Assembly (NCBI GenBank): GCA_021815445.1
Contig: JAKAGM010000001.1
Location: forward strand, 787,710 to 851,709
Direction: 5' to 3'
Length of the DNA: 64,000 bases
Source: a bacterium
GTDB taxonomy: Bacteria > Patescibacteriota > Patescibacteriia > UBA10025
Positions within the stretch are counted from its first letter, which is position 1, and each line of letters starts with the position of its first letter. The notes beneath the pieces are model-generated. The model was not told the DNA's origin and searched no databases. It saw only the letters and a program-made list of their open reading frames with translations. The translations under genes were made by a program, and so were the position numbers. Below are positions 2,915 through 55,287 of this stretch, in pieces.

Positions 2915-3925
2915 ATGCACAAAAAACCCGCTATTTCCGTAGTAATTCCTGCATTTAACGAAGAACGGTATCTCCGCGCGTGTTTATTGTCTTTGCGCCA
3001 GCAGGACATCGATGTGGAATATGAGCTTATTGTTGTCGATAACGGCAGTACTGATGCAACTGCGGATATTGCCCGTGAGTACGGAGCCCGTGTCGTGTTT
3101 GAACCGAGGAAGGGCATTTGCTATGCCAGGGAGGCGGGCACCAGGCAGGCGGAGGGTACTATCATTGTTTCCACTGACGCCGATTGTGTTACCCCTCGTG
3201 ACTGGCTTCAAAAAATCTATGATGCGTTTTTGATAGAACCGGAACTTGTCGGAGTTGCAGGCAGGATCCTTTATGAACCCAAACCCTTTTGGGGCAGAGC
3301 GTGGTCTCGGGGACTTTTCTGGGCGGTTGGTGCGTACTACAAGTTATTCGGCGTCGTCATGTATATCTCAGCGTGCAATTTTGCCTTCTCAAAGTGCGCA
3401 TGGGAAAAAGCGGGAGGATACAATGTTCGACTTGCCCAGGGCGGGGACGAGTACGACCTCTTATTCCGGCTGCGTTCTCAGGGCCATGTGGCATTCCTTC
3501 CTAATAATACTGCGCTCACCTCAAGCCGGCGTCTGGTGCATGGCATACTCTACAGCTTTTTTGTGACTGTGTGCTACTATTATCTTTTTGATTATTTTGT
3601 CCTCAGCCGTTTGACAGGACGCTCCGTCGCCGGCCTCTATCCTGAATTTCGGGGTGAGCAGCAATCACGGCTTCCGCTTTCGTCAAAGTTTGCGGTAGGC
3701 GCGTTAGTGATTCTTATCGGTTTTGGCATTGTACTGGGTTCTACGCCGTTGGCCAAAGCTACGCAGATTCCGCGGCACCAGCTTTCCGCGACGTTTCATA
3801 CCGCAAAAAATCATATTCAGCAATTTAATACTCATCTGGATTCGTGCACGGATAACCTCCCTGCGTGCACCATATCGGCGACGAGCAGGATGATACACTT
3901 TGCTGGACATCGGCGCGTCAGGTAA
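2915..3925 (+). CDS. Family 2 glycosyltransferase (GT-A fold) with a hydrophobic C-terminal region
   Basis: N-terminus ISVVIPAFNEERYL...IVVDNGSTDATADIA...STDADC is the classic GT2 pattern (DxD-like DAD). Confidence 0.8.
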   Translation: MHKKPAISVVIPAFNEERYLRACLLSLRQQDIDVEYELIVVDNGSTDATADIAREYGARVVFEPRKGICYAREAGTRQAEGTIIVSTDADCVTPRDWLQKIYDAFLIEPELVGVAGRILYEPKPFWGRAWSRGLFWAVGAYYKLFGVVMYISACNFAFSKCAWEKAGGYNVRLAQGGDEYDLLFRLRSQGHVAFLPNNTALTSSRRLVHGILYSFFVTVCYYYLFDYFVLSRLTGRSVAGLYPEFRGEQQSRLPLSSKFAVGALVILIGFGIVLGSTPLAKATQIPRHQLSATFHTAKNHIQQFNTHLDSCTDNLPACTISATSRMIHFAGHRRVR

Positions 3926-5947: not shown

Positions 5948-6565
5948 TCATTCTTCGAGTTTCTTTTGGTCAGGATCATCGATCCGTATCAGACATCGGA
6001 GGCTGGCAGCATTCTGCCTTGCAGCTTCGGTCGATGTGCTAATGTCCTCCAGGAGTCCAGACCATTCATACCCATGAATGGCAAAGCATGCCAGTACTAG
6101 ACGATGCCATGAGTCATCAAGAACAATGTGCTGCGCAATGAACCCATAGATCAGCCGCGTGTTACGACACCATGCGTACGTGTCGCTCTGGCGAAGTCTT
6201 TCCCCATAATGGGTCCAGACCCTGTGAAAGAACGCCGCGACGGCAGCTTTGATGCGCTGATCCTCAATGCCCCAAAGGCTACCGATGGTCTTCTTAAAGT
6301 TGACGTCCGCCTGGCCTGACTCATCGATGACCCGTTGAATTCGAAGAAAAAGTAGCAGTTCGTCCTTCGTACAGGTGGCGGGAAGACCACGATCATCACG
6401 CGTATTGTCATCAAGCCAGCGCGTTATCGCGTCAAGCACTTCATTACTGTAGTGTCCCGAATCATCTGCGGACACCTTTCCTTTTTTATCCTGAGATCGC
6501 GGCATACTGTCTCCTTTTGGTTTATTGTGAGAGTACATCCTTTTGCTGAACGAATAAGCATACAC
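5948..6565 (-). CDS. Hypothetical protein
   Basis: 205-aa ORF with no recognisable motif. A lysine-rich N-terminus follows the M at 6505, so the start is uncertain. Confidence 0.4.
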   Translation of the reverse strand: MYAYSFSKRMYSHNKPKGDSMPRSQDKKGKVSADDSGHYSNEVLDAITRWLDDNTRDDRGLPATCTKDELLLFLRIQRVIDESGQADVNFKKTIGSLWGIEDQRIKAAVAAFFHRVWTHYGERLRQSDTYAWCRNTRLIYGFIAQHIVLDDSWHRLVLACFAIHGYEWSGLLEDISTSTEAARQNAASLRCLIRIDDPDQKKLEE

Positions 6566-6664
6566 CTATAAGAAATATTGTCAATATTATTAACATAAAG
6601 TTATTTAAAATATTGCCTATTATTAAAAATTATTTGAAACATAGGTAGAATGTTGTCATTATTA

Positions 6665-6713: not shown

Positions 6714-7466
6714 ATGATACTTGACCAATCTTTACAGGAATTCGGCCTAACTGAAAAAGAGGCTAAAGTGTATCTTGCCGTCTTGGAGTTGGGCCAGGAT
6801 GCTGTGTTAGGTATCGCGAAAAAATCTGAATTAAAACGACCTACAGTCTATCTTATTCTGGAGTCGTTGATTAAACGCGGACTCGTACGAAAAATACCAA
6901 AAGGAACAACAACATTCTACGTGACAGAAGACCCGGATATATTGCTCCAAGTTCTTGAAAAGCGTCAAAAGTCAATCAAGGATGTCATCCCTTTCCTTAA
7001 GGCCATATATAATAGGCGTGATACAAAACCTCAAATACGCTTTTACGAGGGCCGGGAAGGAATTCAAAAAGCATATGGAGAATTTCGTCTGGCTAAAAAA
7101 AATATCCTTTTTTACGGCTCAATCAAGGATATTCTGGAGAGCTTTCCCGACGAAATGTTAACATATGAAATAATAAAGAAAATGGGCATTTCAGTAAAAG
7201 AAATCATGTCGTCGGACCCCGTTGATATAAAATATGCGAAAGAGATCATGGGATATAAAAATCCCAAACACGAAGTTCGAATACTGAAAAAGGGAACCAT
7301 CTTTGCTATAGATACGGCAATTATTGATGATAATAAAATCGCCATAGTATCTTTGAAGGGTAACGCTTTTAGTGTCATGATTCAAAGTAAGGATATCGCC
7401 CAATCGTTTAAAACACTTTATGAGCTTGCTTGGGCGAGCGCGATAAAAGTAACAGACATTGTATGA
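6714..7466 (+). CDS. TrmB-family (sugar-specific) transcriptional regulator
   Basis: N-terminal wHTH LTEKEAKVYLAVLELGQDAVLGIAKKSELKRPTVYLILESLIKRGLV, plus a C-terminal TrmB-like effector domain. Confidence 0.7.
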   Translation: MILDQSLQEFGLTEKEAKVYLAVLELGQDAVLGIAKKSELKRPTVYLILESLIKRGLVRKIPKGTTTFYVTEDPDILLQVLEKRQKSIKDVIPFLKAIYNRRDTKPQIRFYEGREGIQKAYGEFRLAKKNILFYGSIKDILESFPDEMLTYEIIKKMGISVKEIMSSDPVDIKYAKEIMGYKNPKHEVRILKKGTIFAIDTAIIDDNKIAIVSLKGNAFSVMIQSKDIAQSFKTLYELAWASAIKVTDIV

Positions 7467-11237: not shown

Positions 11238-11553
11238 TTTTTACCATCGCATTTACGGAATGGTAAAAGTAATTCCACCGGGTAAAGTCGCTACCTACGG
11301 TCAGATCGCCGCGCTTGCCGGATCTCCCCGCGGCGCCCGGATGGTGGGATGGGCGCTCCATGTACTCAGTGATGAACAACTCGTACATACTCCCTGGCAC
11401 CGCGTTATTAACCGCGAGGGACGGATTAGCACAACCTGTTTCGAACACACCTGCGACGAGCAAGCATTGCTTCTTAAAAAAGAGGGTGTTATAGTACGAA
11501 AAAGCAAAGGTAACTACTGGATTGACTTAAAACAGTTTCAGTGGAAAGTGTAG
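11191..11553 (+). CDS. Alkyltransferase-like protein (ATL; MGMT/Ogt DNA-binding domain with Trp replacing the active-site Cys)
   Basis: VATYGQIAALAGSPRGARMVGWALH...PWHRVINREG. PWHRV replaces the PCHRV motif of O6-alkylguanine-DNA alkyltransferases. The start is uncertain and could be the downstream MVKV. Confidence 0.7.
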   Translation: MKKNSQRQLSTKGGDNFYHRIYGMVKVIPPGKVATYGQIAALAGSPRGARMVGWALHVLSDEQLVHTPWHRVINREGRISTTCFEHTCDEQALLLKKEGVIVRKSKGNYWIDLKQFQWKV

Positions 11554-11567
11554 ATATAAGAATGCGG

Positions 11568-11638
11568 GCGGGTATCGTATAATGGTAATACCACAGCTTT
11601 CCAAGCTGTTGCCGGGGGTTCGATTCCCCCTACCCGCT
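11568..11638 (+). tRNA. tRNA-Gly(UCC), no encoded CCA
   Basis: Cloverleaf: acceptor GCGGGTA/TACCCGC, D-stem GTAT/ATAC, anticodon stem ACAGC/GCTGT with loop TTTCCAA, T-arm GGGGG-TTCGATT-CCCCC. Confidence 0.85.
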
Positions 11639-11792
11639 AATCAGCCTTACCAATAACTTTATAATATTCCCTGCCCACAGATCCCTTCAGACCAAGATGT
11701 TGGGGAAATCGAAGGACAGAAGTGAGCAAGGAATGAAATGACGAAGCGAACGTCGGCGGGGTGCCGGTGGCACGCCGCCGCTGTCCAGGACC

Positions 11793-11810
11793 CGATTCCC
11801 CCTACCCGCT
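11793..11810 (+). repeat. Direct repeat of the tRNA-Gly(UCC) 3' end (18 nt, cgattccccctacccgct)
   Basis: Exact copy of tRNA nt 11621..11638, about 170 nt downstream. A third partial copy (ccctacccgct) is at 12053..12063. Confidence 0.6.
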
Positions 11811-12233
11811 TTGTGGATCCAAATAATTCTACTGTTTCTTTAGTTGCGAGAGTACTAGCCGAAGATAGAGAATCGAAGGGGTGCGAACGGGGCAGAGCGA
11901 CTCAACTGCTTGAGTCGCGGCCGTGAGCACGGGTCGATCATGTTCTGAAGGAACGCGAGACCCAGGGAGAGTATGCATATACCACGCTGCCCAGGAAACG
12001 ATTCTTGAGTTCGATAAAATCTAACGGAACGAGACCCCGTTGAATAGCGGGACCCTACCCGCTCAGCGAATTTGCTCGCTGAGCGAGGCTCGCTACAAGC
12101 GTTAATTAATTCTACTCTCTTGAATATGTGCCCGAAAGAAATGGCATCTGTTTTGTTGGTATTTGGTTAAGTTTGAAATACATCCTTCGACTGACAATTT
12201 ATTAAATTTATCTGAATTATTTGTGAATATTAA

Positions 12234-12262
12234 TTGACAAAAAGCTGTTTTTTTGCTATACT
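12234..12262 (+). promoter_or_regulatory. Consensus sigma70 promoter of paralog A
   Basis: TTGACA, a 17-nt spacer, then TATACT. It is followed by a 26-nt A/T-rich leader with no SD. Confidence 0.6.
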
Positions 12263-12288
12263 GCATACATAATAAATAAATAAAAACT

Positions 12289-13767
12289 ATGTCCGACAAT
12301 ACTATCCAACAATGGCTTGCCCAAGCTCGAGCGGCCGGTTTTTCTGATGTGCAAATTACTGCACAGCTGAAACAGCAAGGCTGGGGCGATGATCAAATTC
12401 AAAAACTGGTTGGCGGCGCAACGTCACCTTCGGTAGCAACAGTTACCGATAGGAATCAAGTCGTTCCCTCTGATACTATTCCAGATGTACTGGCGTTATT
12501 TAAGCAAGCATGGGAAATATACAAATCCCGTATCGGAGCATTTGTTGTTATCGGCCTTATTTTTCTTTTCATAGAGGGACTATTGTACTTTGTGAGCTTC
12601 TTACTTGTCGGCGGAACTGCCGTGCTTGGCATCGCTTCATCCGCTACAGTATTTAAGGGCAACACGACTGCACAAATAGCCACCAGCGTTCTTGCTATCA
12701 GTTTCGCTTCCGTAGCTGTTACGGTAATTTTCGGTTTTTTCCTCGCTTGGGTGTGGTCAGCGTTGATCCATACAATTCACACATACAAAGAAAAGATTGA
12801 CCTCGGCACGATAATGTCCCGGGCGTTTAAGACGATGATTCCGCTTTGGTGGGTTTCAATGCTGTTGAGCTTTTTTGTCTCAGGTGCGAGTTTTCTGCTT
12901 TTTATTCCCGGCATCATTTTTGCCGTTTGGTTTTCAAATGCGCTTTTCTTGCCCGTCACTGAAGGTACGCGCGGCATGCAGTCACTGCTGAGAAGCAAAG
13001 AATATGTTCGAGGCGCTTGGTGGGGAGTGCTGGGCCGCCAGCTCGCCTTTGGATTGCTGGTCGGTGCGGCTTTCTTCGGCTTATTCCTCGTTTTAGGCCT
13101 GGGGACGATTTTTCTCCGTAATACTGCCGGAGCTATCGGGGCCATGGCGTCCATAGCGGTAACATTTGTCTACCTTGCAATTACTGCGCTCGTCATGCCT
13201 TTCGGACTTTGCTATTCATATGCTCTTTACAGCGGTTTAAGGGCATATAAAGCACGGGCTGCTATCGATACACAGCAAACAAAGAAAGCCGGGCTGATTA
13301 TCACAGCAATTGCGGGATGGCTGGTCATTCCTTTAATAGGAATTGGAATTGTTGCGTTTGTTACCAGCATGACTAACTCATTCCTGCCTGCATCGACTGG
13401 ATCAAATAATCTTTTTAACTCAAACAGCTCATACAACTTCAATACCAATAGTTTGAATAATACAAACAACAGTACAACGAGCGCAGGAAACAATGACCAA
13501 AGAAAAGCTGACCTCAATACCATTTCTGCCGCACTGGTGAAGTATTTCAATCAGCATTCCGCATATCCCACGGCCCTAACAGATATTGCGACATTGCTTC
13601 CAAACAGCAAGGTGCCCGCCGATCCATCTGATAATACGAGTTATTATTACTACATGAATTCCGACGGGACATTCGATCTCTGCGCGCTGCTAGATGATCC
13701 AACGACATACGTCAAGGAATACTGTATAAAGGGTGCCGCTGATGGAACGATCGCCATTCAACAGTAG
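12289..13767 (+). CDS. Multi-TM membrane protein, paralog A. It has a conserved N-terminal cytoplasmic domain and a C-terminal type IV pilin-like domain.
   Basis: N-terminus MSDNTIQQWLAQARAAGFSDVQITAQLKQQGWGDDQI is shared with the ORF at 14814..15602. About 8 TM helices follow. The C-terminus QRKADLNTISAALVKYFNQHSAYPTALTDI...VPADPSDNTSYYYY...DLCALLDD fits the pilin/pseudopilin globular-domain pattern. Confidence 0.7.
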   Translation: MSDNTIQQWLAQARAAGFSDVQITAQLKQQGWGDDQIQKLVGGATSPSVATVTDRNQVVPSDTIPDVLALFKQAWEIYKSRIGAFVVIGLIFLFIEGLLYFVSFLLVGGTAVLGIASSATVFKGNTTAQIATSVLAISFASVAVTVIFGFFLAWVWSALIHTIHTYKEKIDLGTIMSRAFKTMIPLWWVSMLLSFFVSGASFLLFIPGIIFAVWFSNALFLPVTEGTRGMQSLLRSKEYVRGAWWGVLGRQLAFGLLVGAAFFGLFLVLGLGTIFLRNTAGAIGAMASIAVTFVYLAITALVMPFGLCYSYALYSGLRAYKARAAIDTQQTKKAGLIITAIAGWLVIPLIGIGIVAFVTSMTNSFLPASTGSNNLFNSNSSYNFNTNSLNNTNNSTTSAGNNDQRKADLNTISAALVKYFNQHSAYPTALTDIATLLPNSKVPADPSDNTSYYYYMNSDGTFDLCALLDDPTTYVKEYCIKGAADGTIAIQQ

Positions 13768-16369: not shown

Positions 16370-17461
16370 CTATAGTTTTCTCACACTACCACCCGTTCCG
16401 TCAACTTCGACGGTATCACCATCATGAAGTATCGAGGTCGCATCTTTTGTATTCACTACACAGGGTATTTTGAGCTCGCGGGCCATGATTGCAGGATGCG
16501 AGGTAAGACCTCCGAAGTCAGTAATGATAGCAGCAACTTTCCCAAAAATAGGTAAAAACTCGGGGGTGGTGATATGCGCGATAAGCACGTCGCCCTGCCG
16601 AACTTTAGGAAAGTCGTCTGAAGATTTGACAACGACGGCGCGACCATGGGCAATTCCTTGAGACGCACCAAGACCTTTCAGAATAGCATCGGGAGAACTC
16701 GTCGGCCGGGTTGATGTTTCAAGCTTCTGGGCTAAGTTATTCATCAAGCGCGAGGTGGTAAAGTCGATAAACCGGTATCCCACTCCGCCGGTGTAAAAGA
16801 TAAATTCAAAGTAGCCTTTGACGAAACCTGCATCGTTGACGGAGAAAGGCAGTTTGCGTCCTTTGGCGTCGAGGAAGCGCACGGCGGCGTAGATAATCCG
16901 TTGATCTGCATTCAGGGCGGAGGAAGCGGGAAAAGCTTTGAGATCAACTTGCTCAGCATGTAAGGCATTCTTTGGGTCAGAAGTACCTTGAGTCAGCGCT
17001 GACGGTTCACCGCGCTTCCATTCTACATACACGCTGGTATCGGTAATGAGAAAAATACCGCTATACTCGGCTCGGTGGTTTTCCCAAATACTGAGCTTGT
17101 ACATCTGAGGAGAAGGCGTGAGCGAACGGGTGAATTCAATACATTCCTGTTGCGATACGCCGTGCTTGCGGACACGGTGCAGGGTTTTAGCATGCTCATC
17201 TTTCGGCTCAGCTTTGATGGAAAAACGGTCGGACTTCGCAGCCGCAAAAAAGTCCTTGAACTTTTTTGTCTGATTCAAAATATCGTCGGCAGAGAAATGC
17301 GTGTGTTCATCGATAGGCAAACCGAGAACATCGCGCAACGTATGGAGACGTGGCCACTTGTTGAGATCCTGGTCTATAAGGTCCTGAATGTCGTCAGGCG
17401 ATACTTTTGGATTAGCGGCACGCAAGCCTTGCAGCCACTCGGTCATGGAAAATGTTTTCAT
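16370..17461 (-). CDS. PEP-utilizing enzyme mobile (phosphohistidine) domain protein with an unknown N-terminal domain
   Basis: C-terminus FGGLTSHPAIMARELKIPCVV matches the PEP-utilizers signature (GGxTSHAAIxARExGIP). The N-terminal 260 aa have no recognisable ATP-grasp or PEP-binding domain. Confidence 0.65.
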   Translation of the reverse strand: MKTFSMTEWLQGLRAANPKVSPDDIQDLIDQDLNKWPRLHTLRDVLGLPIDEHTHFSADDILNQTKKFKDFFAAAKSDRFSIKAEPKDEHAKTLHRVRKHGVSQQECIEFTRSLTPSPQMYKLSIWENHRAEYSGIFLITDTSVYVEWKRGEPSALTQGTSDPKNALHAEQVDLKAFPASSALNADQRIIYAAVRFLDAKGRKLPFSVNDAGFVKGYFEFIFYTGGVGYRFIDFTTSRLMNNLAQKLETSTRPTSSPDAILKGLGASQGIAHGRAVVVKSSDDFPKVRQGDVLIAHITTPEFLPIFGKVAAIITDFGGLTSHPAIMARELKIPCVVNTKDATSILHDGDTVEVDGTGGSVRKL

Positions 17462-17540
17462 ATGTTACTACTATACCATTTTAAACGCAACCGTATCCAC
17501 TACTGGTACGGGTATGGAAATTGTGTATTGGAGTTGGGGG

Positions 17541-17570
17541 GACGGGATTTCCCTTCGGGCCGGGGCTCAC
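17541..17570 (+). repeat. GC-rich repeat, copy a (gacgggatttcccttcgggccggggctcac), related to the tRNA-Gly(GCC) 3' end
   Basis: Same family as 18685..18713 and 19268..19296. It shares its 5' core with the reverse complement of the tRNA-Gly(GCC) 3' end. Confidence 0.6.
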
Positions 17571-17634
17571 AATCGCATATATACAGCATAAAAAAACCTC
17601 AAACTTACGTCTGGTGTGTAGTAAAAAATGTTAC

Positions 17635-18288
17635 TTAACCAATACTTCGGCGACGACTACTAGACTTCTGTTCGATTCGTCTATAAAACAATGCACCTAC
17701 AGTAAGAAATAGTCCTATGAAGGTTGCTTGAGGAATTGTTCCTAGAAATGCTCCCATAAATGCTACTAGTAAGTTGGAGCTAGATACTACAGCAAGTCCA
17801 CCAAAGGTGAGGGTTCCCAAAGTAATAACTATCACTAGGGTAACGAGTATGTAATCACGTAAGTGGTAAAGTTTTGACAGCGCCCTACAATACACTAAAG
17901 CCAGGCTTAGCCCTAAGATAGCGATAATAGCCATGAAAGGCCAGAACCAATCGGCGCCTCCTGTATTGCTTGCACTGCTCGACATATTATTATTCATACT
18001 TCCAAATCCCAGGATATATGGGACAAGCATGAAGAGAAGTAATCCTTCATATAGGAGACCCGGGGGCAAAATGAGTCGCCAGGTTGTATGAAAAAATCCA
18101 AGATGGGTGTGGTTATATTTTTGTGCAAGTTTTTCTGGGTCGCCAAGATCAAGAGCTTGAGATTTACCAACTTCTATTTCTTCAGTGTGCTGACAAATCT
18201 CGGTAATAATTTCTTTCCGCAAAGTACCGCCTACTAAAAGTGCTTGTTCAAAGCGTTCAAGAAAATCTTTACTGCTCATGGGTAGCAT
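17635..18288 (-). CDS. DUF1700-like membrane protein (PadR-associated)
   Basis: N-terminus MSSKDFLERFEQALLVGGTLRKEIITEICQHTEEIE, then 4-5 TM helices. It overlaps the padR stop by 20 nt. Confidence 0.55.
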   Translation of the reverse strand: MLPMSSKDFLERFEQALLVGGTLRKEIITEICQHTEEIEVGKSQALDLGDPEKLAQKYNHTHLGFFHTTWRLILPPGLLYEGLLLFMLVPYILGFGSMNNNMSSSASNTGGADWFWPFMAIIAILGLSLALVYCRALSKLYHLRDYILVTLVIVITLGTLTFGGLAVVSSSNLLVAFMGAFLGTIPQATFIGLFLTVGALFYRRIEQKSSSRRRSIG

Positions 18289-18601
18289 TTTGAACCAAAG
18301 TATTAATGGTTTTTTGAAAAGTGAACCAATCTTTCTTTCGCGCGATTAACCCTCTTCTACCGCGCTTTGTAACTTCATACACACGACGATTCTTATTATC
18401 GATTTCCCTCCATCTACTAGTAATTAGACCTTCATGCTCAAGCTTGTGAAGCAATGGATACAACATACCTACGCCAAACCTAAACATATCGGGCATAGTA
18501 GAGACTAGCTTTTTTGAGAGTGCGTAGCCATGCATTGGCTCCCCGGCAAGTAACGATAGAATAAGTAACTCGGAATTTCCTTTAAGTAATTCTTTGTTCA
18601 T
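18269..18601 (-). CDS. PadR-family transcriptional regulator
   Basis: GYALSKKL...MLYPLLHKLEHEGLITSRWREIDNKNRRVYEVTKRG is a winged-HTH PadR signature. Confidence 0.8.
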   Translation of the reverse strand: MNKELLKGNSELLILSLLAGEPMHGYALSKKLVSTMPDMFRFGVGMLYPLLHKLEHEGLITSRWREIDNKNRRVYEVTKRGRRGLIARKKDWFTFQKTINTLVQNATHEQ

Positions 18602-18684
18602 TTTATGAAGTATATCGTATTACGATATAATAGTACTCTAAAAAGCCACCATTGGCAATAGTGGGCTTGTGGACATCTTTTAGG

Positions 18685-18713
18685 ACGGGATTCCCCTTCG
18701 GGCCGGGGCTCAC
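18685..18713 (+). repeat. GC-rich repeat, copy b
   Basis: gacgggattccccttcgggccggggctcac, followed by the hairpin CGCCCCGC-ggta-GCGGGGC. Confidence 0.6.
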
Positions 18714-18787
18714 GCCCCGCGGTAGCGGGGCATCGTTCACCAACACAAAACAAAATTATCGGTTGCTCTACGGAGAATTTTTTTGGC

Positions 18788-19186
18788 TTACTCCCAAGGG
18801 AATTTAACTACTCGATGTATCTCCTCCAGAAAGTAATCTGGTACAACTTCCGATTTCGGCATAGTATACAAACATGCAGTTTTGACCACTGCTCCTTTAC
18901 TTTCTAGGTATTGTTTCGCTACAACCAAGCTCTTTCCAGTTTCAAGCATATCTTCTACAAGTAGGACACTTTTCCCGTCAATATTTTCCTCTATTACTGT
19001 TTTTACTTTACGTTGATCAGATACTTTTTTTACCGTCAGACAATACATTTCCTTCACATTAAGATAACTTGAAAGCAGCCGTGCGGGAATGAGACCTCCT
19101 CTAACAACCCCAACAATAATGTCGGGGGAGTACTTAATTTTACTTCGAAGTACCTTAATTTCGTTTTCAAGTTCATGCCATGTCAT
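18788..19186 (-). CDS. Type I phosphoribosyltransferase domain protein (small purine PRTase-like)
   Basis: PRPP-binding motif VLLVEDMLETGKS; 132 aa. Confidence 0.75.
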   Translation of the reverse strand: MTWHELENEIKVLRSKIKYSPDIIVGVVRGGLIPARLLSSYLNVKEMYCLTVKKVSDQRKVKTVIEENIDGKSVLLVEDMLETGKSLVVAKQYLESKGAVVKTACLYTMPKSEVVPDYFLEEIHRVVKFPWE

Positions 19187-19267
19187 GGTTTACTATATTA
19201 TTTTTTGAGGACTGGATTCCCCCTCCGGCGAGCCTCGCTTTGTCCGCTGTAAGCGGACAAAGCGGGA

Positions 19268-19296
19268 GACGGGATTCCCCTTCGGGCCGGGGCTCA
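19268..19296 (+). repeat. GC-rich repeat, copy c. It includes a 17-nt exact match (agcgggagacgggattc, 19254..19270) to the reverse complement of the tRNA-Gly(GCC) 3' end. A degenerate copy is at about 19208..19232.
   Basis: gtaagcggacaaagcgggagacgggattccccttcgggccggggctcac. Confidence 0.6.
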
Positions 19297-19475
19297 CGAT
19301 CGCCTCCGGTCTTCGACCCTGGGGTCTCAGACCCGAAGGGCGATATCGTTCGCCCTGCTCATCCCGACGCGACGCAAGCAGTTGCGTCGCTTCTCCTCCC
19401 GATTACTGGTTACTCCTTACAACGAGAATCTAGGAAACTTTTTTTACACTAATAGCTCCATCGAGCTGAGCTCGA

Positions 19476-19550
19476 TGGAGCGGGAGACGGGATTCGCACC
19501 CGCGACCTCTTCCTTGGCAAGGAAGCGTTCTACTACTGAACTACTCCCGC
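19476..19550 (-). tRNA. tRNA-Gly(GCC) with encoded CCA
   Basis: Revcomp GCGGGAGTAGTTCAGTAGTAGAACGCTTCCTTGCCAAGGAAGAGGTCGCGGGTGCGAATCCCGTCTCCCGCTCCA. Confidence 0.9.
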
Positions 19551-19559
19551 AAACGTTGT

Positions 19560-20290
19560 GTTCAATACTATCATTCAACTGACTGGCCCTGCAAATAAAC
19601 GCCCTACTACTGTCAGCCAAAGGCTGATCCGCCTCTGGCGGAAACTGGCGACGAGTTCCTTCACCCCGCGACAGCGGGGTTCAGGATGCTCGATTTTCTA
19701 GCTGCTCGCAAAGCTCGCAGAGAAAATCGGCATTTCAGTCCGGAGACCTGCCCCGCAAAAGCTCACGCAATGAGCGATGCGGGGTCTTCCGGGGTGCTTC
19801 CGATGGGTCGCACCCGTCCCGCAAGGCGGGACCCACTTCGCTACCTCGGTAACGGGTAATCTCTCTCTCATGCCGAGGGCCAGAACCCCGCTAGTCAGCG
19901 GGGCAGGTCTCCCAGGCGACGCAAGGAAAGGAGATCCCTCGTTTTACTCGGGACGCTCAATTTTTCATCTGCTTGTTCCACTCGCAGGAAAAATTGGCGT
20001 TTTCAGTCCGGAGTTTATCCCGCACATGTGCCTGGGGCCAGAATTGAACTGGCGACGCAAGGATTTTCAGTCCTTCGCTCTACCACTGAGCTACCCAGGC
20101 ATTAACCCAGACACATATGCGGGACTCTACCACTGAGCTACCTCGGCGGAAACCAAACCTCGGCAAAAGGGGAGGATATATTTTTAAAGTTCTTCGCGGC
20201 ATTTACCCCGCACCTGGAACGCAGTGACATGGTGCGGGGCCACTGAGCTACCTCGGCGGAGAATGACTTCGGCATGAGAGAGTACTACAG
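19560..20290 (-). repeat. Mosaic of tRNA-derived fragments and short repeats surrounding an intact tRNA-Phe
   Basis: tRNA 5' halves GCCGAGGTAGCTCAGTGG occur in minus sense at 20130..20147 and 20240..20257. A Phe-like 3' half ending CCTCGGCA is at about 19872. A 32-nt repeat CTCCGGACTGAAA..CTGCGAG occurs twice (19724..19755 and 19981..20013). 16-bp inverted repeats lie at 19863..19878 and 20267..20282. Confidence 0.5.
20029..20100 (-). tRNA. tRNA-Phe(GAA), no encoded CCA
   Basis: Revcomp GCCTGGGTAGCTCAGTGGTAGAGCGAAGGACTGAAAATCCTTGCGTCGCCAGTTCAATTCTGGCCCCAGGCA. Confidence 0.85.
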
Positions 20291-20298
20291 ATCCAACT

Positions 20299-20375
20299 TG
20301 GTGGGCGACTCAGGAATCGAACCTGAGACCTCGTCATTATCAGTGACGCGCTCTAACCATCTGAGCTAGTCGCCC
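20299..20375 (-). tRNA. tRNA-Ile(GAU) with CCA, in the 16S-downstream spacer
   Basis: Revcomp GGGCGACTAGCTCAGATGGTTAGAGCGCGTCACTGATAATGACGAGGTCTCAGGTTCGATTCCTGAGTCGCCCACCA. Confidence 0.9.
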
Positions 20376-20666
20376 ATGTAAGAGGATTCAATTGTTAAAG
20401 GCAGGAAAACAAAAAAACTACAGATAGTAGTGTACGGCTTCGATGCATCTACGGCAAGTGGATAGCATGATATCTGTAGGGTAGTCTCATGAAACAACTT
20501 TGACGTGGTAAGAATATTCCTCAATCGAGCCATTCTTAATGTTTCGATATGTAGTTTCACTACACCATAGTGGGGCATCTCTCTTTACGTAATAAAGGGA
20601 TGTGTCCCACGCGACCCTCGTAACGGATACGCGTTATGCGTTTTCCGTCTCTAGGTAATCTCCCTA

Positions 20667-22162
<1,496 letters not shown>

Positions 22163-53358: not shown

Positions 53359-53517
53359 CCGTCGGTCGAATACTTTTTTCCCTCTCCAGTACAGTTCCTC
53401 CCTGGAAGCTGCGTTTTTCTTGTCATTGCGGAGGTCGATGCAAATGGTCAAACCAAGCCCTTTTCACCTTGAAAATTAATAACGTTTTGGCTATACTAGG
53501 ATGTACTTTGGAGTCAT

Positions 53518-53601
53518 GCGCGGGTGGCGTAATTGGTAAACGCGCTAGCTTGAGGGGCTAGTGGCCGTAAGGCCGTGGAGGTTCGAGTCCTCTTCCGCGC
53601 A
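53518..53601 (+). tRNA. tRNA-Leu(GAG), long variable arm, no CCA
   Basis: GCGCGGGTGGCGTAATTGGTAAACGCGCTAGCTTGAGGGGCTAGTGGCCGTAAGGCCGTGGAGGTTCGAGTCCTCTTCCGCGCA. Confidence 0.8.
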
Positions 53602-53860
53602 GATAGAATTCACCAAGGTACGCTAAAAGTGCAGGAATCCCACCGAGAGCACCAAGGGCAACTAATCCCGTTCCGCTATACGGAACGAGGATCTACGATC
53701 ACCGAAGGCGATTGGGACTCAGGTGGGTTCGAGCGGTATCCGCCTTTGCGGATAACGAGCAAACTGCTTTGCTTGCGACCGCGAGAACGGGCGGGCGATG
53801 TGAGCGCGAGCGAACCTGCTCGCCCAGGATAGAGCGTCTCGTTTACACCATAATCGATGA

Positions 53861-53934
53861 GGACGATTAGCTCAGTTGGTTAGAGCGTCTCGTTTACACC
53901 GAGAAGGTCGTAGGTTCGAGTCCTACATCGTCCA
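53861..53934 (+). tRNA. tRNA-Val(UAC), no CCA
   Basis: GGACGATTAGCTCAGTTGGTTAGAGCGTCTCGTTTACACCGAGAAGGTCGTAGGTTCGAGTCCTACATCGTCCA. Confidence 0.85.
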
Positions 53935-53955
53935 TGTAAATCAATTCTTATACGT

Positions 53956-54210
53956 ATGAGATATTTTCTCGGCATCATATTTATCGGCATCGGTTTCCTC
54001 ATTGTATGGAAATCCGACTGGTTCATGGAGAATTTCGGAAGGATAGAATTCGCAGAAAAATACCTCGGCTCAGGCTGGGGCGGTACGCGTGTTTTTTACA
54101 AACTCTTAGGCATCCTGATCATCATTATTGCCTTTATGTACATGAGCGGCTTGCTTCAGTCCATCCTTGGCAGTATTTTCAGCCCTACCCGCAAGGTACT
54201 TTCACAGTAA
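53956..54210 (+). CDS. Small two-TM membrane protein (hypothetical)
   Basis: 84 aa, hydrophobic. Sits between tRNA genes. Confidence 0.35.
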   Translation: MRYFLGIIFIGIGFLIVWKSDWFMENFGRIEFAEKYLGSGWGGTRVFYKLLGILIIIIAFMYMSGLLQSILGSIFSPTRKVLSQ

Positions 54211-54407
54211 AACCAAGGGCCCTTAGCTTCCGCCAGCGGCGGACCCGCCTTTGACGGGCATTTGGGTCGAGTCAACAAGCGAACAGAACTGCTTCTGTTC
54301 GCGCGGGACGAGACGGGCTAAGCGATGTCTGGCGCAGCCAGACAGCGAAGCCCCGAAAGAGCGCCGCGTTTGTACCTTTGAATACGAATAGAATTGAATC
54401 CCTTTAT

Positions 54408-54483
54408 GGGCCCTTAGCTCATTTGGTAGAGCGCCGCGTTTGCAACGCGGAGGTGACCGGTTCGAGCCCGGTAGGGTCCACCA
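54408..54483 (+). tRNA. tRNA-Ala(UGC) with CCA
   Basis: GGGCCCTTAGCTCATTTGGTAGAGCGCCGCGTTTGCAACGCGGAGGTGACCGGTTCGAGCCCGGTAGGGTCCACCA. Confidence 0.9.
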
Positions 54484-54495
54484 TATTTCTAGGCT

Positions 54496-55287
54496 ATGCC
54501 GAATAAAAAACTTATAACAACACTAACCGCAGTTGTGGTTGTGGCACTTTTGGTACTTGCTGCCTTTTTTTTATTTCGCTCTACACCTTCAAATATGACG
54601 AATGTAAACCAGACGACAGGTCAAAATACTAATCAGCAACTCAATAGCAATATAACAACCGCCGATTTCAACACAAACTCAGCCCCGGTAATTTCGAATA
54701 CCAACGCACCACCACTCAACATCAACACAATACCCGTGAATACCGCCGCACCAGCATTACTCGCATACCCGATCGACAAATTCCAACAACGGGCCACCGC
54801 AAACTTTTTCGGCACTTACTACCCCGTGGGAGGCCACGACCATCCCGACCTTAAAGTGTGCCCTACCGCAAAATACTATTCCGGCTACCACACCGGCATG
54901 GACTTGGAAACGTTTTCTACTGAATTAAATACTTCCGTGCCTGTGTTTGCCATCGCCGACGGCATAGTCCGGCAGGCAGGCCCGGTGACCGGCTATGGGA
55001 CTCTGGTGGTAATCGGATTCAGCCTCAAGGGCGATGACTATACCACCTACTACGGGCATATCAACGGCAGCACGGTCACTGTGAAAGCCGGCGATGCAGT
55101 TACTCAAGGTGAAAAAATCGCCGAGCTTGGCCCGGCCTGTTCGTCGGCAAACGGCGACGTCAGGAAACATCTACATTTCGGCTTACATAAGGGCGCCGGC
55201 ATCGACGTGCGCGGGTATGTGCCAGATAAAACTACCCTGGACAACTGGGTAGACTCCGCAACGTTCTTTAGTGCTAACGGGCTATAG
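54496..55287 (+). CDS. M23-family (LytM-type) metallopeptidase with N-terminal TM anchor and N/T-rich linker
   Basis: HTGMD, YGHI...G..V..G..I, HLHFG. Confidence 0.8.
   Translation: MPNKKLITTLTAVVVVALLVLAAFFLFRSTPSNMTNVNQTTGQNTNQQLNSNITTADFNTNSAPVISNTNAPPLNINTIPVNTAAPALLAYPIDKFQQRATANFFGTYYPVGGHDHPDLKVCPTAKYYSGYHTGMDLETFSTELNTSVPVFAIADGIVRQAGPVTGYGTLVVIGFSLKGDDYTTYYGHINGSTVTVKAGDAVTQGEKIAELGPACSSANGDVRKHLHFGLHKGAGIDVRGYVPDKTTLDNWVDSATFFSANGL

Follow-up and report, generated by a model that had tools for sequence, protein, structure and literature searches.

We have analysed a 64-kb window (the whole stretch of DNA under study, to which coordinates refer unless another locus is named) from a genome that groups with the Patescibacteria, or candidate phyla radiation (CPR). 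In this window, in which ten tRNA genes are called, partial copies of tRNA-Val and tRNA-Ala lie just upstream of the intact genes, and both are interrupted by a short, hairpin-forming core that belongs to one sequence family. In the window's genome and in the sampled relatives, this family occurs solely in or next to tRNA genes. We consider the chances about even that the partial copies are the junction repeats of a non-autonomous, tRNA-specific insertion/duplication element without open reading frames (ORFs), which leaves one tRNA intact. They look less like random debris than like scars left by a tRNA-targeting insertion element that has not been described before.

Partial copies of tRNA-Val and tRNA-Ala precede the intact genes

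The intact tRNA-Val(TAC) is located at 53861-53934 (+; ARAGORN and Rfam) and is preceded by an 11-nt leader (53850-53860). Upstream of it, TAGAGCGTCTCGTTTACACC at 53830-53849 (+) is an exact 20-nt duplicate of tRNA-Val positions 21-40, and when the D-loop GG is included 22 of 23 nt are matching. The piece stops 11 nt 5' of the gene, and 31 nt separate both copies. The initial annotation had described a 19-nt duplication 31 nt upstream of the gene, which is real and extends to 20 nt. The fragment had been regarded as an isolated duplication, and this part did not hold, as the piece flanks a degenerate extra tRNA-Val 5' part (~positions 1-27, GGCGATTGGGACTCAGGTGGGTTCGAGCG) at 53707-53735 (+) with the core inserted. 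In a local alignment, this 5' part is identical to tRNA-Val in 22 of 27 columns, with 3 gap columns.

The intact tRNA-Ala(TGC) is located at 54408-54483 (+), behind a 31-nt leader (54377-54407). Two pieces of it are found upstream. The first, GGGCCCTTAGCT at 54217-54228 (+), is identical to tRNA-Ala positions 1-12 over 12 nt, exactly as first reported. The second, AGAGCGCCGCGTTTGTACC at 54358-54376 (+), corresponds to positions 21-39, with 15 nt exact and 17/19 overall; it has TGT where the gene has TGC, as had been noticed, and starts at 54358 instead of 54357. The two pieces are spaced by 129 nt and the hairpin between them has 10 bp, so that the reported insert and hairpin are present but were measured slightly short (128 nt and 9 bp). 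The upstream fragments belong to a broken partial tRNA-Ala copy beside the intact gene, in agreement with the initial annotation. In 300 shuffles per 700-nt flank, the longest exact chance match was at most 10 nt upstream of tRNA-Val and at most 13 nt upstream of tRNA-Ala. Since the real matches are far longer than those in the shuffled flanks, the repeats are non-random.

The final 17 nt of the tRNA-Ala leader (54391-54407, AATTGAATCCCTTTAT plus G) are near-identical to the leader (20376-20392, -) of tRNA-Ile(GAT), the tRNA that comes after the 16S rRNA, and the leader is unlike that of tRNA-Ala in the relative L211. The new 5' part of tRNA-Ala therefore seems to have arrived together with a leader that is paralogous in origin.

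The inserted cores are homologous and structurally conserved

The inserts at Val and Ala are homologous and belong to a single element family. Alignment of the upstream DNA shows that they share non-tRNA sequence, namely an invariant AA-CUGC-UU hairpin top, GCGATGT and CGAGA-CGGGC. The pattern GCGA-N-AACTGCTT-N-TCGCG is found 3 times in the window where 0 are expected. A CTGC loop on a hairpin stem of 7 bp or more is present in four copies in the window, and none other of this type was found in ~2 Mb of other DNA. These four CUGC-core copies are located upstream of tRNA-Val, upstream of tRNA-Ala, downstream of tRNA-Gly(GCC) (-) and, as the second unit of a tandem pair, downstream of tRNA-Gly(UCC). 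Each shares the strand of its tRNA.

The Val-side core (53736-53829, +) was defined by its fold, by a helix check, by homology to the Ala and Gly copies and by a covariance-model match. It begins with a hairpin (hp1, 53738-53753) and the CUGC-loop hairpin (53756-53775). The 3' strand of a tandem-G.A helix follows (ACCGC-GA-GAAC, 53778-53788), whose 5' strand is the 3' end of the degenerate Val copy at 53707-53735. Stem P1 (GGGCG 53789-93 paired with CGCCC 53821-25) then encloses the hairpin GUGAGC-GCGA-GCGAAC (53800-53815). The tail, AGGA(T), is located directly before the 20-nt tRNA-Val piece, where the tRNA sequence resumes exactly at the insertion point of the core.

In the Ala-side copy, a 30-nt double-hairpin module, TCCGCCAGCGGCGGA + CCCGCCTTTGACGGG (54229-54258, +), sits between T12 and C13 of the broken tRNA-Ala copy, and a second copy of this module is found within the tRNA-Phe remnant (19612-19642, -). 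The broken tRNA-Ala copy then continues with a D-loop-like stretch (54259-54271, +; CATTTGGGTCGAG vs CATTTGGTAGAG in the gene), which provides the 5' strand of the G.A helix. The core itself (54272-54357, +) consists of the 10-bp CUGC-loop hairpin (54279-54302), the GAC-GA-GAC strand (54307-14), P1 (GGGCT 54315-19 paired with AGCCC 54349-53), an inner hairpin (54327-43) and the tail CGAAAG. A segment of this core (54308-54321, ACGAGACGGGCTAA) is 86% complementary to tRNA-Val positions 20-33 at 53880-53893 (TTAGAGCGTCTCGT), which may be chance or a generic D-stem/anticodon-stem complement carried by the cores.

We refer to the copies with a CUGC core as type B. MAFFT aligned the full set of copies poorly, so a script was used to check the type-B helices, and it showed a three-part build in each copy: the CUGC hairpin, the surrounding tandem-G.A helix, and a P1-closed domain with a CAGGA-like tail. 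The CUGC hairpin stems have four different sequences with the pairing kept. The tandem-G.A helix is formed by GUUC-GA-GCGGU with ACCGC-GA-GAAC in the Val copy, GUC-GA-GUC with GAC-GA-GAC in the Ala copy, and GUGC-GA-ACGG with CCGU-GA-GCAC in the Gly-UCC copy. Similarly, P1 is found as GGGCG/CGCCC, GGGCU/AGCCC, GGGUC/GACCC, GGACAG/CUGUCC and GGGCAG/YUGCCC. The fold z-scores lie between -2.1 and -5.0 over the copies, with -2.3 for the Val and -3.6 for the Ala element.

A shorter form, type A, has P1, a GUGAGC/GYGAAC G.A helix, a variable hairpin and a CAGGAC tail. It is found as the first unit downstream of tRNA-Gly(UCC) and in the Leu-Val interval of the syntenic relatives L211 and L213, and the element of the relative L210 has a mixed form. 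RNAalifold on the type-A copies recovers the helices with 5 compensatory pairs, 3 of which are in the stem between the internal arm and the tRNA piece described below. When the window was searched with a type-A covariance model, two of the four best non-self hits were on target: the best fell on the Val core (53784-53840) and another on the type-B core at Gly(UCC), both weak (E 1.7 and 5.5).

The elements are ~95-130 nt in size and ORF-less, and they matched none of the collections searched. Rfam 15 at the gathering score recovered only genuine tRNAs and 16S rRNA in the window, and E-value scans of 53400-54600, 11500-12300 and 17400-20400 gave no match on the elements, so that the Infernal/Rfam check proposed in the initial annotation for the Leu-Val spacer and the Ala insert returned nothing on them. 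BLAST against plasmids and phages gave no match to the elements. In viral contigs, the CUGC-hairpin pattern had at least 120 matches, none of which is a hairpin, so all are chance; tighter core patterns and a 19-nt core-end unit gave unrelated coding matches or none. A two-part type-A motif had a single match across metagenomes, in a near-twin of L211.

These structures bear on whether the copies arose by local, non-mobile decay. Slippage or unequal exchange would then duplicate parts of a tRNA, the dead copies would decay and gain GC-rich hairpins, and the likeness among loci would be due to ectopic gene conversion via conserved tRNA segments. We regard this as improbable, as non-tRNA motifs (the AACUGCUU loop, GCGAUGU, GUGAGC...GCGAAC and the CCAGGA tail) are shared by at least four loci and by other genomes, and the helices are kept by compensatory changes. 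Decay does find support in the tRNA-Phe region, where old alleles are broken at several loops and a ~300-nt segment is duplicated, and in core segments that resemble the cognate tRNA. D-arm and T-arm sequences common to tRNAs could mediate the conversion, and in L126 (Parcubacteria GW2011_GWA2_38_13b) the left flank GGTYRTAG travels with a hairpin between Val and Phe loci. Against this, Val and Ala have their insertion point in common, the hairpin-to-breakpoint distance is roughly constant in four independent cases, and a streamlined genome (877-881 kb contig) is expected to purge neutral DNA. The initial annotation had suggested that fragments lacking conservation and covariation in relatives would be neutral debris. 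The elements are indeed not conserved at their exact sites (the Ala and Val sites of L211 are empty), but absence of covariation was not what we found. Because the family has compensatory changes across copies and genomes, neutral debris is not the best reading.

Each core is followed by a piece of its own tRNA

Every copy is co-oriented with its tRNA and is then followed by 11-20 nt identical to that neighbouring tRNA. The piece covers tRNA positions 21-40 (20 nt) in the Val copy, 21-39 (19 nt) in the Ala copy with positions 1-12 (12 nt) on the other side, 56-72 (17 nt) in the Gly-GCC copy with CGGGAGGAG (positions 2-10) on the 5' side, 55-72 (18 nt) in the Gly-UCC type-A copy, and the tRNA 3' end (11 nt) in the Gly-UCC type-B copy. 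The Leu copies of L210 and L211 end in 17 nt and 18-19 nt, respectively, of the 3' end of each genome's own tRNA-Leu, and the L213 Leu copy likewise ends against its own neighbouring tRNA piece.

The boundaries of the pieces are located in tRNA loops. The core insertion point is the same in Val and Ala, at the D-loop/D-stem junction GGT(T)|AGAGCG (GGTT|AGAGCG in Val). Both cores are preceded by a recognisable, degenerate tRNA 5' part, and both broken copies stop at the anticodon loop. Since the core is inside a truncated tRNA copy at the D-loop/D-stem junction, 19-20 nt of that tRNA come next. With S for the piece, the layout can be written as U-(tRNA 1..a)-hairpin core-S (~20 nt)-leader-(tRNA 1..a)-S-rest of tRNA. 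At Val and Ala, this layout is what would result if a unit of 150-190 nt, made up of core, S, leader and tRNA 5' part, had entered the D loop by Campbell-type insertion. The Gly and Leu loci are the mirror image, with insertion in the T loop and a 17-18-nt repeat from the T loop to the discriminator base. We infer that the elements move, or moved, as units, and that they may be non-autonomous, with a recombinase or nuclease acting in trans.

The tRNA-identical piece can pair with an internal arm of the element to form a stem, P0. The arm and the piece are GGGACUC/GAGUCCC in L210, GACUUG/CAAGUC in L211, GGGGAAaUCG/CGAUUCCCC in Gly-UCC, CGAGA/UCUCG in Val and CGCGG/CCGCG in Ala. That the arm covaries with tRNA identity suggests that the folded arm-core-piece is the recognised site, of which P0 would be a part.

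Empty sites and replaced tRNA alleles in relatives

The nearest sampled relatives are ~60-78% identical to the window's genome in L19 or M23 peptidase. A search of the genome collection with L19 gave five Patescibacteria loci, distant phyla dominating the matches, and M23-peptidase homologues were not syntenic. Several relatives were unusable because their contigs end at or just after tRNA-Leu or tRNA-Val. The assemblies L210, L212, L222, L223 and L002 (relatives or same species) all end within or just after the L19/tRNA-Leu/tRNA-Val locus, which hints at repeats or strain variation there.

The interval that holds the Val and Ala elements has L19, a small membrane protein of 84 amino acids (aa) and an M23 peptidase as neighbouring genes. 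The 84-aa ORF (53956-54210, +), to which no Pfam family was matched, is located between tRNA-Val and tRNA-Ala; it is kept there in relatives and was used as a synteny anchor. L211 has the same gene order, RluA, L19, tRNA-Leu, tRNA-Val, 84-aa ORF and tRNA-Ala. Its tRNA-Ala begins 21 nt after the ORF with no insert, and its tRNA-Val is without the 5' piece. In the window, the 12-nt Ala piece begins 6 nt past the stop of the ORF, about where the tRNA-Ala of L211 starts. As the Ala and Val sites of L211 are empty, the Val and Ala inserts were gained in the window's lineage. In L211 and L210 the element is instead downstream of tRNA-Leu, and a compact Leu-Ala-Val-Phe cluster is found at the corresponding positions in L128.

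L210 and L211 carry a full Leu-side element, whose end repeats the 3' end of each genome's own tRNA-Leu and adds CCA. The displaced Leu pieces have an encoded CCA and the native downstream flank, and the adjacent intact Leu genes are without CCA. In the window, the intact tRNA-Leu(GAG) (53517-53601, +; ARAGORN and Rfam) does not encode CCA either, and a promoter scan places a promoter-like site 5' of it at 53469-53497. It is followed by a remnant of the Leu-downstream element (53602-53654, +), cut down to ~50 nt, with the family tail CAGGA at 53632-36. GAATCCCACCGAGAGCA at 53635-53651 and the CCA at 53652-54 are a relic of a tRNA-Leu 3' end. The relic shares 16/17 nt with the tRNA-Leu 3' end of L210, and the window's own tRNA-Leu differs from it. 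Since the relic fits the L210 allele and not its own gene, tRNA alleles have been replaced. Similarly, comparison of L212 with L224 shows that the core and the last ~15 nt (with CCA) of tRNA-Val(GAC) remain in the native flank, the rest of the tRNA being replaced. L224 also has, between the intact tRNA-Ile(TAT) and tRNA-Val(GAC), a hairpin at 3735-3785 (GGTGTCC-TGAGCATATCGAA-GGACACC) with the family motif TCGAAGGAC and no tRNA piece attached.

The Leu-Val spacer had been described as hairpin-dense and as a possible structured non-coding RNA. The first description is confirmed by the hairpins at 53665-53692, 53738-53753 and 53756-53775 and by the P1 domain with the hairpin 53800-53815; the second is not. 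The spacer is a mosaic of the Leu-allele relic with its CCA, a stand-alone long hairpin seen in the sequence (ATCCCGTTCCG-CTATA-CGGAACGAGGAT, 53665-53692, +) and the Val element, rather than one non-coding RNA.

Copies at the tRNA-Gly loci and the tRNA-Phe region

That tRNA-fragment scars recur in the window, as the initial annotation had stated, is borne out by cognate pieces of 17-18 nt downstream of tRNA-Gly(UCC) and tRNA-Gly(GCC) and of 13-18 nt around tRNA-Phe. Downstream of tRNA-Gly(UCC), the type-A copy (11702-11810, +) has a 5' arm, P1 (GGACAG/CTGTCC), the GUGAGC/GCGAAC G.A helix, a hairpin and the tail CAGGAC, and ends in the 18-nt piece of tRNA positions 55-72 at 11793-11810. The type-B copy comes second in tandem (11873-12063, +), with its G.A helix at 11881-90/11921-30, the CUGC hairpin at 11897-11918, P1 at 11931-35/11959-63, an internal degenerate tRNA-Gly 5' piece at 11967-88, and CCCTACCCGCT as its end at 12053-63. 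A 492-aa gene beside this array encodes a membrane, pilin-like protein. The type-B copy downstream of tRNA-Gly(GCC) (19261-19401, -) has the CUGC hairpin at 19369-19390 and the strand CGGGAU-GA-GCA, and its end is the 17-nt copy of tRNA positions 56-72 at 19261-19277.

A unit of ~30 nt, GTGAGCCCCGGCCCGAAGGG(G/A)AATCCCGTC, which consists of the core end and the 3' strand of the tRNA-Gly(GCC) T stem, occurs in three copies (-) at 17541-17570, 18684-18713 and 19268-19297. Each is intergenic and downstream of tRNA-Gly(GCC), and the three bound a mini element, a PRTase gene and a gene pair of PadR and a 217-aa protein. The arrangement resembles an array of cassettes that has built up at the tRNA.

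The Gly and Leu loci bring in another explanation, that the scars are relics of tyrosine integrases, with the pieces as attL/attR identity blocks and the cores as arm remains of larger, later deleted islands. The 17-18-nt T-loop-to-discriminator repeats downstream of tRNA-Gly and tRNA-Leu are the classic layout of such sites, reportedly so in the Williams 2002 classification. The ~30-nt units of core end and tRNA piece bound gene cassettes (PRTase, then PadR and the 217-aa gene), the core of L212 is at the right end of inserted ORFs beside the 3' piece of the resident tRNA, and intact tRNA-Leu genes are without CCA while the displaced pieces retain CCA and native flank. We nevertheless consider integrase relics an unlikely origin. 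The integrase-type direct repeat of the tRNA 3' portion downstream of the gene is present at the Gly and Leu loci but absent for Val and Ala, whose repeats are 5'-side pieces upstream and not a product of such elements. The DNA between repeats would be merely 31-55 nt, and the conserved, covarying hairpins would be left unexplained. The Leu relic is of a different acceptor-stem allele than the adjacent gene, so that whole-tRNA replacement would be needed. No integrase gene was found in any examined neighbourhood: among the called genes around the loci there is no integrase or recombinase Pfam, and unannotated neighbours have no such Pfam or PHROG hit.

The intact tRNA-Phe (20028-20100, -) is located between 11-nt inverted repeats (20114-20124 and 20018-20028), which lie within an older tRNA-Phe allele with the acceptor stem GCCGAGG...CCTCGGCA. 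Pieces of the older allele are found at 20125-20147, 20000-20013 and 19871-19885, and hairpin inserts break several of its loops (region 19560-20300, -). A second degenerate series with the same layout comes after it (e.g. 19732-19745). In the wider region (19476-22162, -), the 16S rRNA comes first, and after it tRNA-Ile(GAT), the tRNA-Phe debris and tRNA-Gly(GCC). There is no tRNA-Ala or 23S after the 16S rRNA within the window, and tRNA-Ala(TGC) is 32 kb off.

The same architecture with other hairpins, and GIY-YIG genes

In L126, an unrelated double palindrome is located after G10 in three tRNA copies. One is a broken 5' half of tRNA-Val(TAC) that closely precedes the intact gene, another is a second tRNA-Val(GAC), and the third is a tRNA-Phe copy just downstream of the intact tRNA-Phe. 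The palindrome (72-95 nt; 6530-6660, 7140-7280 and 1490-1651 of that locus) is made of two units, TCCCGAY...RTCGGGA, right after TAG. Its left flank GGTYRTAG is present at both the Val(GAC) and Phe loci, and the form of GTAG plus hairpin recalls repetitive extragenic palindromic (REP) elements. In L128, the 5' part of a tRNA-Leu is followed by a perfect palindrome of 20 nt and a piece of 23 nt, and a GIY-YIG gene for 81 aa (889-1134) then precedes the intact tRNA-Leu. The distance from the hairpin to the stop of the broken copy is 19-24 nt in L128, L126, Val and Ala, both end points shifting along the tRNA. This near-constant distance argues that insertion and duplication are coupled.

GIY-YIG genes of 81-90 aa adjoin tRNA genes at 4/4 loci (6775-7044 in L126, within 815-1223 in L128, 941-1186 in L212 and 4001-4255 in L224). 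Three of the four are beside broken tRNA copies, that of L128 being between the broken and the intact tRNA-Leu. A tblastn search found no GIY-YIG gene in the window, and no homologue was traceable to the window's genome.

The regular length and position of the pieces bear on a third explanation, that recognition is programmed. The core would serve as a scaffold, and the 17-20 nt next to it would act like a guide or define the site. This could be an RNA with a 3' guide (like an omega RNA or crRNA), used by a nuclease or recombinase that is encoded in trans, or a folded att-like single-strand site (like integron attC) in which P0 sets the target. The piece is near-constant in length (17-24 nt) though its ends shift (9-31 in L128, ~14-36 in L126, 21-40 in Val, 21-39 in Ala and 55/56-72 in the T-loop copies). 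It is always directly 3' of the core, the arm/piece stem covaries with tRNA identity, and the pieces in L210 and L211 fit each genome's own tRNA-Leu allele. In L128, L126 and L212, a small GIY-YIG gene begins shortly after the hairpin and piece and shares their strand; near the window copies, by comparison, there is no partner protein, and no GIY-YIG homologue was traced to the window's genome. The piece is sense to the tRNA and so unable to pair with the tRNA itself, and the arm/piece pairing is partly explicable as leftover tRNA stem strands. A nuclease guide that matches the adjacent essential tRNA gene would be self-targeting, no Rfam guide-RNA family is matched, and the sample is very small. 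Taking these points together, we give programmed recognition a low probability.

Its most specific form, in which the core, the ~20-nt piece and the complementary arm are a programmable module steering a trans-acting enzyme to specific tRNA-gene loops, is in our view more doubtful still. Such a module would be either a recombination site in folded single-stranded form or an RNA that combines scaffold and guide, and a change of arm and piece would retarget it. A small nuclease is one candidate for the enzyme, e.g. an 80-90-aa GIY-YIG protein as in the other Patescibacteria with the same layout.

Discussion

We favour, at about even confidence as stated above, the reading that a non-autonomous element which targets tRNA genes left the partial tRNA copies as its junction repeats. 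Several points weigh against it. The Leu-downstream element may be old and orthologous in three genomes, which fits retention as well as mobility, and no polymorphism was seen among same-species samples. The link between type A and type B depends on common motifs and weak model hits. Only ~8 copies from 4-5 genomes were examined, and the type-B structural alignment was done by hand, as MAFFT misaligned the copies. Parts of the cores resemble the cognate tRNA, ACCGCGAGAACGGGCG vs ACCGAGAAGGTCG in Val and CGGGAUGAGCA vs the T arm in Gly-GCC, and therefore some of the structure could stem from a tRNA that has decayed and not from foreign DNA. Near the window copies, no gene for a transposase, integrase, reverse transcriptase or homing endonuclease was found. 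The elements are also without terminal inverted repeats and without a conventional short target-site duplication.

If the favoured reading is true, the tRNA genes of ultra-small Patescibacteria would be hot spots for non-coding structured elements that break spare copies, replace alleles and build cassette arrays, and the elements would be the tRNA counterpart of the known CPR rRNA-gene insertions. It would also explain why assemblies of such genomes are prone to breaks at tRNA clusters and why tRNA finders may yield fragments or overlook genes at these places. Pieces of 17-24 nt that are specific to the neighbouring tRNA, together with a covarying arm, would raise the possibility of base-pair-programmed targeting of tRNA genes, which would be of wide interest if confirmed. 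Should the programmable module be true, CPR bacteria would have a family of mobile elements that encode no protein and find their targets by base pairing. Should decay alone be at work, the copies would still be a useful catalogue of tRNA-gene turnover in a streamlined genome.

Comparison with known systems

A number of identities were considered and rejected. A group I intron does not fit broken copies without the tRNA 3' half and an insert of 94-129 nt, and there is no Intron_gpI match. A split or multi-intron tRNA does not fit either, as the Val and Ala copies stop at the anticodon loop and the anticodon-stem strands of the old tRNA-Phe (CCGGA vs TCCTT or TCTCC) are unpaired. The unit ends of Val, Ala, L210 and L211 are not inverted repeats, the sole repeats being tRNA pieces of 11-20 nt, which speaks against a miniature inverted-repeat transposable element (MITE) or another DNA-transposon derivative. 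The pieces are sense, not antisense, to the tRNA, as a retroelement primer-binding site would not be, and they are identical, not complementary, to the tRNA, which rejects a T-box or other tRNA-binding leader. A casposon-like long target duplication was rejected, as terminal inverted repeats are absent and Val and Ala do not conform to its layout. ARAGORN and Rfam were both negative for tmRNA. For the Leu loci, a simple insertion into a complete tRNA copy is not tenable, as neither L210 nor L211 has a tRNA 5' part upstream.

The omega RNA of IS200/IS605 TnpB, a scaffold with a ~16-20-nt 3' guide from the flank, is similar in form only: here the core is followed by 17-20 nt of the flanking tRNA. 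No TnpA/TnpB gene is in reach, there is no Rfam omega-RNA match, the 'guide' equals the adjacent essential gene, and a partial tRNA duplication accompanies the element. Like REPs and bacterial interspersed mosaic elements with their REP-associated tyrosine transposases, MITEs and Rickettsia palindromic elements, the elements are small, ORF-less, hairpin-forming, multi-copy and presumably trans-mobilised, and the L126 insertion follows (G/A)TAG, similar to the GTAG head of REPs. Unlike these, they have no terminal inverted repeats or short target duplications, they occur in tRNA contexts only, and each copy has a segment of the cognate tRNA.

SegB, a free-standing GIY-YIG homing endonuclease of the phage T4 tRNA cluster, brings about co-conversion and segmental amplification of tRNA regions through cleavage and repair (PMC2330249; PMC13096335). 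A GIY-YIG gene is likewise found among tRNA genes in L128, L126, L212 and L224. The window loci, in contrast, are without a GIY-YIG gene, and the CPR proteins have ~80-90 aa with the nuclease domain only, their activity on tRNA genes being putative.

Closer likenesses are found in two other systems. As in tRNA-targeting integrative elements, a partial tRNA copy bounds the insert, an intact tRNA is regenerated, the breakpoints are in tRNA loops, and there is tandem accretion at tRNA-Gly(GCC) and tRNA-Gly(UCC). The differences are that the units here are 100-250 nt, with no integrase or arm-type sites recognised, that Val and Ala carry 5'-side pieces upstream, and that the inserted DNA is made of conserved, covarying hairpins. 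The rRNA genes of CPR bacteria have short, ORF-less, non-intron inserts resembling intervening sequences, mostly <200 bp, at the top or base of stem-loops, and some have GIY-YIG genes; tRNA genes are not mentioned in that study (PMC11270868). Our elements are from the same bacterial group, are ORF-less non-intron inserts of 30-129 nt at D-, T- and anticodon-loop positions, and in L128, L126 and L212 are likewise associated with small GIY-YIG genes. Unlike the rRNA inserts, their hosts are truncated copies beside an intact one, and because they are truncated these copies cannot be functional tRNAs. The elements thus do not fit the definitions of group I introns, MITEs, omega RNAs or integrase islands, and they share their logic with tRNA-targeting integrative elements and with the CPR rRNA inserts.

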